This document shows positions 3,001 through 6,000 of a stretch of 16,470 bases of DNA, in pieces. This DNA is from Elusimicrobiota bacterium (GTDB taxonomy: Bacteria > Elusimicrobiota > Elusimicrobia > Elusimicrobiales > UBA9959): positions 1 to 16,470 of the forward strand of contig DAIENX010000017.1 of assembly GCA_027340875.1 (NCBI GenBank). Reading direction: 5' to 3'. How positions within the stretch are numbered: the first letter of the stretch is position 1; each line of letters begins with the position of its first letter. Position numbers: made by a program.

Positions 3001-6000
3001 ACACGGCGGTAGGCACGCTGGTCGGGGCTATCCTGTTCGCGGCCTCGATGATACTACAGAAGGGCCTGGGTTCCGTGGTGAGCATGTTCAGGCTCTACGT
3101 CACCTCGCCGGGTGAGAGTTCGATAGGCCTGGGCAAGCTGGCGCTACTGTCCACGGCCCACCTGGGCCTTTCAATGCTGCTCGCGGTCATAACCATCTCG
3201 GTGACGCTCAGGCTCTTCGGCAAACTGGTGCACAGCCACATGCACGCCGGAGAGGAACTGGAGAAAGGCAACCTGGCGGTAGGCATAGTCCTGGCCAGCG
3301 TGGTGCTGATAGCCTCCCTCTACGTGGGCGAGGGCGTCAGCGCCATCACCAAGGCGCTGGTACCGCAGCCCTCCATAGGCCAGATAGAGATAATGCAGTA
3401 GCGCCGGCCGGTTCCCGATCAAAGGCGGCCCCGGGGCCGCCTTTTTTCTTTTCCCGAACCCGACAGCCCCTTGGCCGCCTGATGAGCATAGCTCCTGATG
3501 CGGCACGGCCATAGGCCAGGCCGCCTGATGAGCATAGCTCCTGATGCGGCACGGCCATAGGCCAGTCGGGTTGCCCATGGAACTTCTTTGCGTCCGGCCT
3601 GACCCGACAGACCCTTGTCGGGTTGGCCTGCTATGCTATCGGCATGAACAACAGAAAACACAGGACCATAGTCAGCGCCAAGGCCGGCATACTCGGCGGC
3701 AGGCTAAAGGGCAGCCTGCGCGTCTACACTCTCGGGGAAGGCGCGGGAGCGGACCTCTACTTCTCCGTGAAGCTCTGGCAGGCCGCCGCGCTCAGGCAGC
3801 AGCGGCTTTCCGTGGCGGCCGCCTACGCCAGGTAAACCTGCGCGCCGCAAGGGGGACTTATGGGGTGGAGCATAAAGGACTGGCTCTGCGGCTACAGGGC
3901 CGAAAGGGAGGACGGCGAGATGGTCTTCATCTACTCGCGACCCGCATGGGGCACGGGGATGTCGGGGATACGGCGCTTCTACGAGCTGCGCAGTCGCGGC
4001 GAGCTCATCGGCCGCATATCATCGGAGAGCTCCTTAAGGCCTCTCGTGCGTGCGGAATGGCTGGCCGGTCCCGGCCACGCCCTGAACGAGAACGACCTTC
4101 TCGAGATAGCCTGCGCCCTTCCCCCCCGCCCTTGATTCCCCGCTGTTATTTGCTAGAATTTCCGCAGGGGCGGAGGGATGGAAAAGCAGAAAGGTTTTCT
4201 GGAGCAGAACCTTGCCGAGTCGCAGGGCAAGGACGTCTGCCGCATACTTTTCGACGGTTCTCCGGACGCGATCTTCCTCGCGGATACGGAGACCGGGATC
4301 ATTATAGACGCCAACCCCGCGGCGGAGCGGCTCACGGGACGCCCCCGGAATGAGCTGATCGGCCTGCACCAGTCGCAGCTGCACCCGGCAAGAGGGGAGA
4401 ACGCCTCGAAGAGGATATTCAAGGAACATTCGCGCCACGGCAGCGGGGTCATCCACAGCGGCCCGGAGCTGCACTACGTGCTGCGGGCGGACGGGTCGGA
4501 AGTCCCTACGGAGATCACCGCCCAGGTGATAGAGATCCGCGGCAAGCGGGTACTGCAGGGCTTCTTCAGGGACGTCTCCGAACGCGTGAAGGCGGAGCAG
4601 GCGCTGAAGGAATCGGAGAACAAGTTCAAGACCCTGACCGAGAAGTCCATGGTCGGGGTCTACCTCATCCAGGACGGCCGGTTCCGCTACGTGAACCCGG
4701 TGCTTTCGAAACTTCTGGGCTACACGCAGGACGAGCTGCTGGCCTTATCCCCCGAGGACGTCATAGTACCGGAGGACTGGCCGCTGGTCAGGGAGAACCT
4801 CCGCCGGCGCATCGACGGAGAGATCGCGTCGCTCAGCTACGCCTTCCGCGGCCGGAAGAAGAGCGGGGAGATACTGCATGTAGAGGTCTTCGGCACCAGG
4901 ATAGAATACCTGGGCCGGCCCGCCGTGCTAGGCACACTGCTGGACCTGACGGAGCGCAGGCGCGAGCAGGAAGCCCTGCGCGAAAGCGAGGAGCTTTACC
5001 GCACGCTGGTGGACAACGCGCCGATCGGTATAGCCGTCTACCGCGACAACAAGCTCCTTTTCGCCAACCGCCAGATGCTCTCCATCGGCGGCCTGAAGGA
5101 CCAGTCCTCCATTATAGGCCGCGACGTGCTGGACTTCGTGCACCCGGACTCCAGGGAACAGGCCGCTGCCCGCCTGCGCGAGATCTCAAAGAGCGGCAGG
5201 CCGCTCCCGCCGGCCGACATAAAGATGCAGGTCCCCGGAGGAAAGATCTTCAATATGGAGGTGCTCTCCATCCCTATCTCCTACCAGGGCAAGGACTGCA
5301 TCATGTCCCTCTTCGAGGACGTGACAGCGCGCAAACAGGCCGAGAGCGAGCTGCGTAACGCCCACGATCTGCTGCTGGAGGCCAACTCCGGCCTGGAGAG
5401 GCGGGTAGAGGAGCGCACGACCCAGCTGGCCGATCTGAACAAGGAGCTGGAGGCCTTCTCGTATTCCGCCGCCCACGACATGAAGGCGCCGCTGCGCCGC
5501 ATCAACATCTTCGCCGACCTGCTCGAGAAGGAGGCCGCGCCGGAGCTCAGGGAGGAACACCGCGCCACCATACGGATGATCCATAAGTCTGTGCTCCACA
5601 TGACCAGCCTGGTGGAAGGCCTTCTGACACTTTCCACCGCCGGCCGCAGACAGCTGGACATGGCCGGCGTGGTCCTCTCCGAAATATTGGGAGAGGTGCT
5701 GGCGGATATAAAATCCGAGAACCCGGACAGGGAGATAGAGTGGCGCACCGAAGCCCTGCCGCAGGTGAAGTGCGACCGTGCGATGATAAAGCAGGTCTTC
5801 ATCAACCTTCTGTCGAACGCCGTGAAGTACACCTCCTCCCGGCCGAAGGCGCAGATCGGGATATCCGCCAGCCGCGAAGGCGGCTTCCACGTGATCCGCG
5901 TGAGAGACAACGGCGTGGGCTTCCCCCCGCAGTACCGGGAGAAGGTGTTCGACGTCTTCCAGCGTCTTCACAAGGCGGAGGATTTCTCCGGGACCGGCAT

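Follow-up and report, generated by a model that had tools for sequence, protein, structure and literature searches.

A 46-nt repeat of three short stems in the Elusimicrobiota family UBA9959 has the footprint of a mobile insertion next to a host G

A 46-nt repeat found in tandem in a genome of the Elusimicrobiota family UBA9959 (assembly GCA_027340875.1) behaves as a mobile insertion, as shown by sites that are filled in one place and empty in another, by copies nested within other copies, by arrays, and by identical copies lying in unrelated contexts. The explanation that we consider probable is that the repeat is a non-autonomous mobile element which moves as folded single-stranded DNA by a logic resembling that of the IS200/IS605 elements, with a putative enzyme acting in trans. 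The evidence on the element is drawn entirely from MAGs. The window analyzed here is the whole stretch of 16,470 nt that forms positions 1–16,470 of contig DAIENX010000017.1, and all features placed in it below are on the forward strand.

Two identical units, at 3474–3519 and 3520–3565, lie head to tail in the window with zero spacer. Tandem Repeats Finder reports 3473–3565 as 2.0 copies with a period of 46 and 100% matches, confirming the two head-to-tail copies that the survey's finding had placed at 3472–3565, and it gives a second period of 23 nt for the same interval. The unit length of 47 nt proposed there has to be corrected: the repeating unit is 46 nt, beginning with GCCG and ending with CCAG, and what had been counted as its position 1 is a G belonging to the host (that numbering, with the host G as position 1, is kept here). 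The host G of unit 1 is at 3473, and the final G of unit 1 stands in for the host G of unit 2. The count of two units is that of the assembly; the public k-mer contigs of four DNA runs of one study that contain the locus end inside the tandem, and no joints were found in them, while no RNA run is listed as holding the locus. A third copy occupies 12994–13039, with its host G at 12993. In the genome as a whole an iterated nhmmer search at E≤0.01 finds 60 matches on 40 contigs, of which 49 on 34 contigs are near full length; the element is multicopy as described before, the previous count being about 50 copies on 33 contigs. The sequence pattern used in the survey was recounted at 13 + 17 = 30 matches, the number given originally. 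Copies are carried on both strands, neighboring copies lie head to tail with period 46, and no inverted pairs were seen in this genome. Period-46 arrays of two to three units or more also occur in many other genomes, and the units inside one array are usually identical. By our own crude ORF calls, 52 of the 60 matches overlap no ORF by more than 10 nt and the other eight lie at ORF edges, in agreement with the description of the copies as mostly intergenic.

The unit reads, from its 5′ end, as the 5′ strand of stem P1, one strand of an internal loop, hairpin P2 with a C-ATA-G loop, the other strand of the internal loop, the 3′ strand of P1, AC, hairpin P3 with a second C-ATA-G loop, and AG. 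The outer stem P1 (positions 2–6 with 28–32) encloses the conserved 5×5 internal loop and P2; P3 follows and is extended by a covarying pair, 34–47, giving stem lengths of 5, 4 and 4(+1) bp. Both hairpins of the original description are therefore present, while the fold is not limited to them, since it includes the outer stem and pair 34–47. The RNA minimum free energy of one unit, −20.8 kcal/mol with both hairpins, reproduces the value reported before, and a circular fold of the element retains all pairs. Across 14 pairs in 67 distinct copies, 96.5% of 938 cells are paired, compared with 84.2% in shuffles, and none of 500 shuffles reaches the observed level; cells in which both partners have changed number 119 in these copies versus 38 in shuffles, and sliding the partners along the alignment lowers pairing to 23–44%. 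The claim that compensatory base changes keep the hairpins is thus upheld. Pair 34–47 is C-G in 111, T-A in 12 and T-G in 2 of 126 distinct copies. What is conserved as sequence comprises both C-ATA-G loops and both YTGAW strands of the internal loop, within which no covariation was found, whereas the stems are kept by compensatory changes. A pattern having N at every stem position still finds the family in 42 of 80 genomes, with 0 in the control. The listed matches of this pattern appear paired by eye. On the proposed active strand, non-Watson-Crick cells in the larger set are 20 A.C versus 9 G.T (p = 0.06), and in this genome alone 11 versus 2; an excess of A.C over G.T would, if anything, favor folding of the complementary strand.

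The compensatory changes bear directly on the possibility that the repeat is an array of sites at which a regulator or nucleoid protein would bind double-stranded DNA, its GCATAGC-like boxes being spaced by 23 bp. Both boxes are near invariant and evenly spaced, and the 23-nt period returned by Tandem Repeats Finder is in accord with such an array, but binding to a duplex needs no compensatory changes, yet these are seen in all three stems. The copies also hold no constant position relative to promoters or genes, and the insertion behavior would be left unexplained, so that this possibility appears extremely remote.

The tandem of the window splits a hairpin of the host. The 5′ arm of this hairpin (3457–3464) and its loop (3465–3472) precede the insertion, the host G at 3473 is the first base of the 3′ arm, and the rest of the 3′ arm follows at 3566–3572; folds of 3455–3580 pair the 5′ arm with 3565–3572. 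An intact second copy of the same hairpin, which is an empty site, lies at 3602–3624 within the leader of a gene starting with ATG at 3644, and this leader is kept in every one of the nine other relatives for which the intergenic region could be retrieved (10 of 13 loci). Upstream, and outside the element, a terminator-like G+C hairpin with a T run (3424–3447) follows a DUF350 gene (2859–3401). The best Rfam 15 match over 3350–3700 scores 19.9 bits where the gathering score is 229, and it rests for the most part on this terminator; no family reaches its gathering score in the interval, and the survey had likewise found no Rfam match over a copy on C109. The nearest relative carries, at the leader-hairpin site, three identical units of a different variant, which differs at 10 of 46 positions, 8 of them in 4 compensatory pairs. 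A different variant at the same leader hairpin fits repeated targeting of one site. The third copy of the window likewise sits in the loop of a small hairpin (5′ arm 12984–12989, loop 12990–12992, 3′ arm starting from the host G). Its carrier is a larger, different miniature element with terminal inverted repeats (12916–13141), flanked by TTA at 12913–12915 and 13142–13144 and absent at the orthologous site of the nearest relative. Two true MITE-like families co-occur with the 46-nt element in this genome.

Six comparisons of filled and empty sites define the footprint. In these comparisons 46 nt are added without target duplication directly 3′ of a host G, and in at least five of the six the site is the loop of a pre-existing hairpin. 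Very often the insertion point is the 3′ edge of such a loop, which makes the host G the first base of the 3′ arm. Two of the sites belong to a miniature element of ~150 nt, of which one hairpin is filled on contig C65 and empty on C1 and C80, and a second site is filled on C13 and empty on C110 and C66, with an additional difference of 1 nt between the paralogues at the junction. At the third site, position 12993 of the window, two carrier paralogues (C65:93618 and C81:18241) are without exactly these 46 nt. The fourth is a cobalamin riboswitch on C58, filled in this genome and in relative G050 and empty in the orthologues of G046, G047 and G070; the copy lies in sense in the variable arm, and the riboswitch still scores above threshold. 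The fifth, on C55, is longer than its orthologues in G050, G070 and G042 by 47, 46 and 37 nt, respectively, and the sixth is the leader hairpin, filled at 3457–3572 and empty at 3602–3624 and in nine relatives. For a further locus on C68, nothing matched among the orthologues sought in five relatives. Insertion contexts include other miniature elements, the leader hairpin, the riboswitch, the last codons of a gene, and copies of the element itself, into which other copies are nested at TG^A points. The boundary was resolved by means of the T34/A47 subfamily, from a nested copy in locus L149 and the copy at C52:20931 compared with paralogous empty sites, and the boundaries share only 1 nt of homology.

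The host G is near invariant, being present in 78 of 83 flank clusters. It is usually preceded by T or A (73 of 83, against a background of 43%), and T occupies position −2 in 37 of 83, so that the target amounts to just 2–3 bases (TWG). Pairing of 5 bp or more between the 3′ and 5′ flanks is seen in 11 of 81 copies where 4.5 are expected, a number equal to the highest one reached in 500 re-pairings; just 24 of the 81 flanks show a host stem of 4 bp or longer. Many copies are carried by two larger miniature elements, and copies are therefore not independent events. A passive repeat, which entered a few carriers once and was then spread by transposition of the carriers, by slippage in arrays and by gene conversion, would be consistent with the usual identity of array units and with the finding that copies at one carrier site (site A) are all of C6-G28 type and those at another (site B) all of T6-A28, C13-G21 type. 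The 83 distinct flank clusters, many of them in unique sequence including the riboswitch and a gene end, argue otherwise, as do the precise insertions at TG^A points inside element copies and the W left flank. Moreover, 1 nt of boundary homology is too little for slippage or conversion to yield the same ends each time. We consider passive spread quite unlikely.

Orientation provides a further distinction. No bias was detected with respect to local GC skew (at 3, 10 and 25 kb) or to gene strand on what are short contigs, the counts being 17:26, 20:23 and 18:25, nor relative to neighboring genes; among co-directional gene pairs our own count gives ~14 sense and ~15 antisense copies. The lack of gene-orientation bias, together with the absence of any reverse transcriptase match in the genome, argues against an RNA route. 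It also weighs against a cis-acting RNA module, that is, a double hairpin that binds protein or stabilizes transcripts through a C/D- or K-turn-like YUGAW/YUGAU loop with tandem G.A pairs, is selected on transcripts and is spread by recombination. Such a module would account for stems kept by compensatory changes, for the stable RNA fold, for UGAUGA and CUGA-like strings in the internal loop, and for the sense copy in the riboswitch; REPs of enterobacteria do affect mRNA decay. However, copies are found within other mobile elements and within one another, their presence at orthologous sites varies, the internal loop does not match that of a K-turn, and no Rfam family is matched, leaving an RNA module unlikely. 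A K-turn has a 3-nt bulge followed by tandem sheared G.A pairs. The loop here is a symmetric 5×5 loop without that bulge, and G.A/A.G pairing within it would need a one-base shift and a bulge on each strand; membership among K-turn or box C/D motifs is rejected, the likeness being one of resemblance only. The hammerhead and other small ribozymes are rejected as well: CUGAUGA is present, but GAAA after stem II is not, and there is no Rfam ribozyme match.

The repeat had been presented as a new REP-like mobile structured element. Its mobility is strengthened by the present results, whereas the features that define a REP are lacking. According to PMC6006769, REPs have GTAG or GTGG 0–2 nt 5′ of the hairpin and a basal stem of 7–20 fully paired nt. 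GT[AG]G is absent next to the stem on either strand of the 46-nt element (the consensus of 67 copies starts with GGCCG), and none of its three stems attains that length. The mobile unit of a REPIN is an inverted doublet, which differs from copies lying head to tail at period 46. The REP/REPIN-RAYT systems of E. coli and Pseudomonas are nevertheless similar in being short, extragenic hairpin repeats that occur in either orientation, with tens to hundreds of copies in a genome, restricted to lineages and thought to be handled as single-stranded DNA; the extragenic location, high copy number and dual orientation are traits that the 46-nt element shares. They differ in carrying GT[AG]G, in having one long stem rather than three short ones and inverted doublets rather than head-to-tail arrays, and in that no transposase gene is flanked by 46-nt copies, while precise insertion into hairpin loops is documented for the 46-nt element.

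The survey's finding had further suggested that the repeat is perhaps the substrate of the RAYT-type Y1 transposase g02533, which would then bind the hairpins in single-stranded form and spread them. No HUH-type gene was found in the genome other than this one (C111; locus L001, 1474–2115), whose best match is to the REP-associated tyrosine transposases, at 60 bits with a cut-off of 80; Y1 genes are common in the family (67 of 80 genomes), and the element resembles Y1 substrates in having hairpins and no target duplication. However, g02533 is flanked by an unrelated palindrome, with one copy upstream and two downstream and 12 sites in the genome, which is the classical mark of a gene with a REP of its own, and g02533 looks committed to that different palindrome. 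A search at E≤10 around 13 Y1 loci (g02533 and 12 others) found no 46-nt copy within 1.5 kb. Over the 80 genomes there is no association between element and Y1 presence (53/8/14/5, Fisher p = 0.28), with genomes G066 and G074 having 15 and 16 pattern matches and no Y1 match, and the missing GT[AG]G tetranucleotide also counts against a RAYT. The assignment to g02533 is accordingly not supported, and we hold it to be improbable. In 72 regions near copies, the only recurrent proteins were a common response-regulator family and spurious ORFs running through repeats. A search of the genome for Y2/IS91 enzymes gave no match, the control genomes being likewise silent; IS110 is represented by one broken fragment below cut-off, and no TnpB was found.

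The explanation preferred here is single-strand transposition in the manner of IS200/IS605. Like IS608, ISDra2 and their small derivatives, it inserts 3′ of a short sequence in one orientation, without terminal inverted repeats or target-site duplication (six filled/empty comparisons and the nested copies), and it has two similar subterminal hairpins, P1/P2 at the left and P3 at the right, with C-ATA-G tips. The element would move as a folded single strand. If closed, the 46-mer would form a rod tipped by P2 at one end and by P3 at the other, so that one, probably dimeric, protein could hold both loops; recognition of both twin loops by one protein, as first suggested, is plausible. The target would be cleaved 3′ of WG, and the element itself 3′ of its last two bases, the last base being predicted to pair with base 34, which adjoins the foot of P3 on its 5′ side. 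In geometry this matches the pair formed by guide and cleavage site in the "peel and paste" transposition of IS200/IS605, where the final base ahead of the cut is paired with a base just 5′ of the right hairpin foot (guide and "peel and paste" logic after PMC6006769). Host hairpins may be targeted because the arrangement C...loop...W-G^ imitates the right end of the element. The most speculative step is the action in trans of a putative single-strand transposase of HUH/Y1 type.

Differences from IS200/IS605 are also evident. The left hairpin of the 46-nt element starts at its first base, leaving no room for a left guide, and no left-end guide was found. Choice of the left target by a guide at position 34 is rejected, as position 1 remains G irrespective of position 34 and is G in 11 of 12 T34/A47 copies. 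IS200/IS605 elements are strand-biased, recognize a tetra- or pentanucleotide target and have an associated TnpA, whereas for the 46-nt element no strand bias was detected, the target is the far less specific TWG plus a structural context, no associated TnpA was found, and targeting of its own right end leads to arrays. That the complete "peel and paste" substrate is contained in 46 nt, with hairpin tips for one dimeric enzyme, a guide of 1–2 bases, excision as a rod-like circle and targets in host hairpins that mimic the right end of the element, is a tentative and rather doubtful proposal. If it were true, the element would be the smallest mobile DNA known, driven either by an unlinked, domesticated Y1 enzyme or by an unrecognized enzyme class. 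As it stands, the element may be among the smallest mobile DNA elements described.

Other known systems share some aspects. IS1397 and ISKpn1, which insert into REP loops, and IS621 and IS1111-type elements likewise target the loops or cores of pre-existing palindromes, but each of these is an autonomous insertion sequence of kilobase size with a gene for its own enzyme, whereas the 46-nt unit is non-coding. BIMEs of E. coli, the neisserial Correia/NIME repeats, BOX, ERIC and MITEs are also interspersed, intergenic, and modular or nested; MITEs, however, have terminal inverted repeats and target duplications, as does the carrier at 12916–13141 with its TTA, and the 46-nt element has neither, which sets it apart from that class. 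Integron attC sites resemble it in keeping structure over sequence in their stems, in acting as a folded single strand, in a circular cassette form, and in recombination beside a G. The core sites of attC are RYYYAAC/GTTRRRY, and these are missing from the 46-nt element, which is attached neither to cassettes nor to an integron platform, although no search aimed at an integrase was made.

The element is largely confined to its family. The survey's sequence pattern is present in 61 of 80 genomes of UBA9959, with none of the 80 containing the reversed-pattern control. In a phylum sample of 301 Elusimicrobiota genomes, with one mismatch allowed, it occurs in 16 of the 22 UBA9959 genomes and in 1 of the 278 that belong to other families. 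The restriction to the family claimed in the survey thus holds, apart from single copies in the one genome from outside it just mentioned and in a MAG labelled Omnitrophota. A search of viral contigs gave 0 matches, and no earlier description of the element was found in searches of the literature for REPs in Elusimicrobia and for UBA9959.

How REPs and related bacterial hairpin repeats move and choose their sites is still largely inferred, and the 46-nt family leaves unusually clean footprints: its insertions are of exactly 46 nt, its boundaries are resolved, its copies are nested and arrayed, and at one orthologous site sister genomes carry different variants. Because a single synthetic oligonucleotide can contain the entire substrate, the mechanism is open to direct test. 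Should the single-strand model prove right, the element would define the minimal requirements of such transposition, and mimicry of structure, here by hairpin loops, would be able to replace a long target sequence. In practical terms, the element interrupts MAG assemblies, changes the ends of genes and is present in a riboswitch, and it should therefore be masked when these uncultivated Elusimicrobiota are annotated; its variable occupancy could serve as a strain marker.

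Tandem Repeats Finder reports two perfect head-to-tail units at window positions 3473–3565 (period 46, 2.0 copies, 100% matches), in agreement with the survey's finding of two head-to-tail copies at 3472–3565. The tandem follows the terminator-like hairpin of a DUF350 gene (2859–3401) and precedes the leader of a gene starting with ATG at 3644, and a third copy, recovered by iterated nhmmer, is located at 12993–13039. The same iterated search of the whole genome (112 contigs, 2.8 Mb, 63.6% G+C; cut-off E ≤ 0.01) yields 60 matches on 40 contigs, 49 of them near full length on 34 contigs, consistent with the roughly 50 copies on 33 contigs counted in the survey. 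The copies lie mostly between genes, as had been reported: under our crude ORF calls, eight of the 60 matches touch ORF edges and the other 52 share at most 10 nt with any ORF. The reported lack of an Rfam family is likewise borne out over window positions 3350–3700, where nothing reaches a gathering score. A 669-aa ORF at 826–2835, without a Pfam match, overlaps two ORFs preferred by the crude caller, 845–1795 (+) and 1849–2781 (−).

To evaluate fold and covariation, 67 distinct copies from this genome and 30 relatives were aligned without gaps and numbered so that position 1 is a host G and positions 2–47 are the 46-nt unit. The survey described two hairpins kept by compensatory changes; the covariation is confirmed, but the fold comprises three helices rather than two hairpins alone. 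P1 pairs positions 2–6 with 28–32, P2 pairs 12–15 with 19–22, and P3 pairs 35–38 with 42–45; P2 and P3 each enclose an A-T-A loop closed by C-G, and P3 is extended by pair 34–47 across bulged position 46. Standard pairs occupy 96.5% of 938 cells versus 84.2% in 500 shuffles, none of which reaches the observed value, both sides have changed in 119 cells versus 38 in shuffles, and only 23–44% of cells still pair when partners are slid by 1–3 columns, figures that overstate independence because the copies were gathered with a sequence profile and are mutually related. With a loops-only pattern that leaves all stem positions free, the family is still recovered from 42 of 80 genomes, against none with the control, and in the approximately 150 listed matches the stems, judged by eye, are almost always paired. 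The internal-loop strands Y-T-G-A-W and Y-T-G-A-T keep their sequence and show no covariation. The fold of one unit has an energy of −20.8 kcal/mol as RNA, the same value as obtained previously, and −10.8 kcal/mol as DNA, with modest Z-scores of −1.4 to −2.1; a closed 46-mer is predicted to retain all pairs as a rod capped at its two ends by P2 and P3. In a large subfamily, the dominant one in other genera, positions 35, 45, and 46 are T (CAC-TGGC-ATA-GCCT-TG, for example at loci L005, L006, L007, and L012), and a T.T mismatch is thereby conserved at the foot of P3.

The repeat is very probably a mobile insertion, as the survey held. Six comparisons of filled with empty sites differ by the element alone, apart from a 1-nt junction difference on contig C13 and a less clean case on C55. 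Two of these sites lie in the commonest carrier, a miniature element of ∼150 nt (C49:1–300, C13:35180–35330, C66:43050–43150, and ∼25 other places), whose terminal inverted repeats are imperfect and start with GGACCGG and which contains two GGAGCGAAGCGAC boxes. At the first, a small hairpin that C1 and C80 carry without interruption is enlarged by 46 nt in the C65 carrier; the second holds the element on C13 but not on C110 or C66, paralogues that differ by that further 1 nt at the junction. The third window copy sits in a hairpin of a second miniature element with inverted ends (12916–13141); precisely this 46-nt stretch is missing from the paralogues of that element on C65 and C81. This carrier, between glutamate dehydrogenase and response-regulator genes, is flanked by TTA at 12913–12915 and 13142–13144, an apparent duplication; it is absent from the same site in the nearest relative, G050, and other genus members, and its 3′ 107 nt recur at 85–90% identity in many genus genomes. 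On C58 the element occupies, in sense orientation, the variable, peripheral arm of a cobalamin riboswitch, which with the insertion matches RF00174 at 38.1 bits, above the gathering score of 31.5 (C58:10852–11010; locus L231 403–561). The insertion is common to G050 and absent from the orthologues in genomes G046, G047, and G070, where the flanks abut. G050's riboswitch copy carries two changes in the P3 loop. The C55 copy (C55:3097–3143; locus L230 498–544) falls within the final codons of a gene at a tight operon junction, the frame running ∼15 codons into the element to stop at the TAG of its last bases; orthologous stretches are shorter by 47, 46, and 37 nt in G050, G070, and G042, respectively, a comparison that is less clean in that the junction itself is diverged.

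The sixth site is that of the tandem, whose host hairpin is a second copy of the leader hairpin found intact at 3602–3624. Each of the nine other relatives with a recovered intergenic region (10 of 13 loci) has the intact hairpin before this gene, and the extra hairpin recurs in G050 alone, where it contains a different variant as three identical units. The two variants differ at 10 of 46 positions, eight of them in four compensatory pairs, and since four double changes exceed the divergence of the flanks, the site probably underwent insertion or conversion separately in each lineage. The leader itself (3602–3643) consists of a hairpin (CCCGAC, 8 nt, GTCGGG) followed by CTGCTATGCTAT directly before ATG 3644; it is kept in 10 of 10 genus members recovered, its hairpin core has eight sites in the genome, and it may be a regulatory leader. 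The ORF from ATG 3644 stops at 3833–3835 and is followed by a same-frame ORF at 3860–4135; neither has a Pfam match, relatives' DNA aligns across the whole stretch from 3644 to about 4345, and 3644–4135 may represent two small genes or one interrupted gene.

Further support for mobility comes from copies nested inside other copies, identical copies in unrelated flanks (C37, C41), and head-to-tail arrays of two to three units or more, with period 46, in many genomes. A cis-acting RNA module is disfavoured as an alternative: by our count, copies between co-directional genes are sense in ∼14 cases and antisense in ∼15, copies occur inside other mobile elements, and occupancy differs between orthologous sites.

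Where the common variant leaves the ends uncertain by one G, a subfamily in which positions 34 and 47 are T and A, respectively, settles them. At locus L149 such a unit is nested in another copy, which is intact only if the insert is positions 2–47, and by the same reading C52:20931 matches its empty paralogues with zero substitutions. These cases indicate that the unit comprises 46 nt, one fewer than the 47-nt repeat of the survey, and enters 3′ of a host G without duplication. Position 47 tracks position 34 (C-G in 111, T-A in 12, and T-G in 2 of 126 distinct copies), and position 1 is independent of it, being G in 11 of 12 T34/A47 copies. Among 83 clusters of unrelated left flanks, the base before the host G is T or A in 73, versus a flank background of 43%, the second base before it is T in 37, and the commonest triplet is TTG (25 clusters); all three kinds of nested insertion point are TG^A, where ^ marks the insertion. 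Passive spread on carrier elements explains part of the copy number, but leaves unexplained both the 83 distinct contexts and the precise TG^A insertions.

The host G opens the 3′ arm of a hairpin in at least six unrelated contexts, which puts the element at the loop's 3′ edge. Pairing of 5 bp or more between the 3′ and 5′ flanks is seen in 11 of 81 copies versus 4.5 expected (500 re-pairings, maximum 11), many of these copies being on a common carrier, and a host stem of at least 4 bp is present in only 24 of 81; the host hairpin is therefore a preference, not a rule.

IS200/IS605 single-strand transposition, as outlined in PMC6006769, involves elements without inverted ends or duplication, with two similar subterminal hairpins, which insert 3′ of a short sequence via a circular single-stranded intermediate and whose cleavage sites are read by bases just 5′ of a hairpin foot. 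The anatomy of the present element fits the same logic, the most likely one for its movement, with base 34 just 5′ of the P3 foot and pairing with the last base; however, its target falls well short of those of the known family in length, and no left guide was found. The right end (CAG, TTG, TAG, or CTA) resembles the target TWG, and this would explain how the end of a resident copy draws the next one, giving arrays, and why host hairpins of the form C...loop...W-G, as imitations of the right end, are hit. Counting against such a mechanism, no orientation bias was detected with respect to GC skew or gene strand, A.C mismatches exceed G.T on the proposed active strand (20 versus 9, p = 0.06), and none of the mobile-element enzymes searched for could be linked to the element. 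We consider a folded single-strand intermediate somewhat favoured, and an HUH-type peel-and-paste mechanism only a tentative proposal.

The proposal that the Y1 transposase g02533 acts on the element is not supported. The 213-aa protein, encoded on C111, is the only PF01797 match in the genome and scores best as a REP-associated tyrosine transposase (60 bits versus a cut-off of 80; IS200, 20.6 bits). Its gene is flanked by a different, perfect palindrome, AAAAGGTACC-W-GGTACCTTTT, with one copy upstream and two downstream (locus L001 1408–1448, 2114–2135, and 2159–2180; C111 around 16254–17026) and a core at 12 sites on 4 contigs. A RAYT gene flanked by copies of its own REP is the textbook arrangement, and on sequence context gene and palindrome resemble a classical REP-RAYT pair, here in Elusimicrobiota. 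Even at E ≤ 10, copies of the 46-nt element are absent within 1.5 kb of this and 12 further Y1 loci of the family, and listed coordinates compared by eye place none nearer than about 6 kb to a Y1 gene. Across 80 genomes there is no association (both present in 53, element only in 8, Y1 only in 14, neither in 5; Fisher p = 0.28), and two genomes, G066 and G074, 93% and 90% complete, have 15 and 16 pattern matches and no Y1 match. No protein recurs beside the element in 72 regions, the genome has no match for reverse transcriptase or TnpB, and IS110 is represented by a broken fragment below the cut-off; a Y2 search gave no match either here or in its control genomes.

Restriction to one family, given as UBA9959 in the survey, is upheld apart from single copies. 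The survey's pattern matches 61 of 80 family genomes in 9 of 13 genera, with 0 to 30 matches per genome, and its reversed control matches none of the 80; with one mismatch allowed in a phylum sample of 301 genomes, it is found in 16 of 22 family genomes versus 1 of 278 from other families, the latter a single copy in genome G117 (C55:1927–1955). Scanning one genome per species (185,579 species) returned at least 120 matching stretches; among the 80 matches listed, all are from MAGs labelled Elusimicrobia/Elusimicrobiota or unlabelled 'bacterium', except one labelled Omnitrophota with a single copy (L132). The single copies outside the family could reflect a mis-binned contig or transfer. Viral contigs gave 0 matches.

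The earlier description as a REP-like mobile structured element holds as to mobility. The features that define REP itself, namely GT[AG]G, a long basal stem, a RAYT gene flanked by copies, and inverted doublets, are all absent. Neither the inverted ends nor the duplication of a MITE is present, and some IS200/IS605-type features are. Literature searches on Elusimicrobia palindromic repeats and on UBA9959 found no prior description. We file the element as a small non-autonomous hairpin repeat outside every named family.
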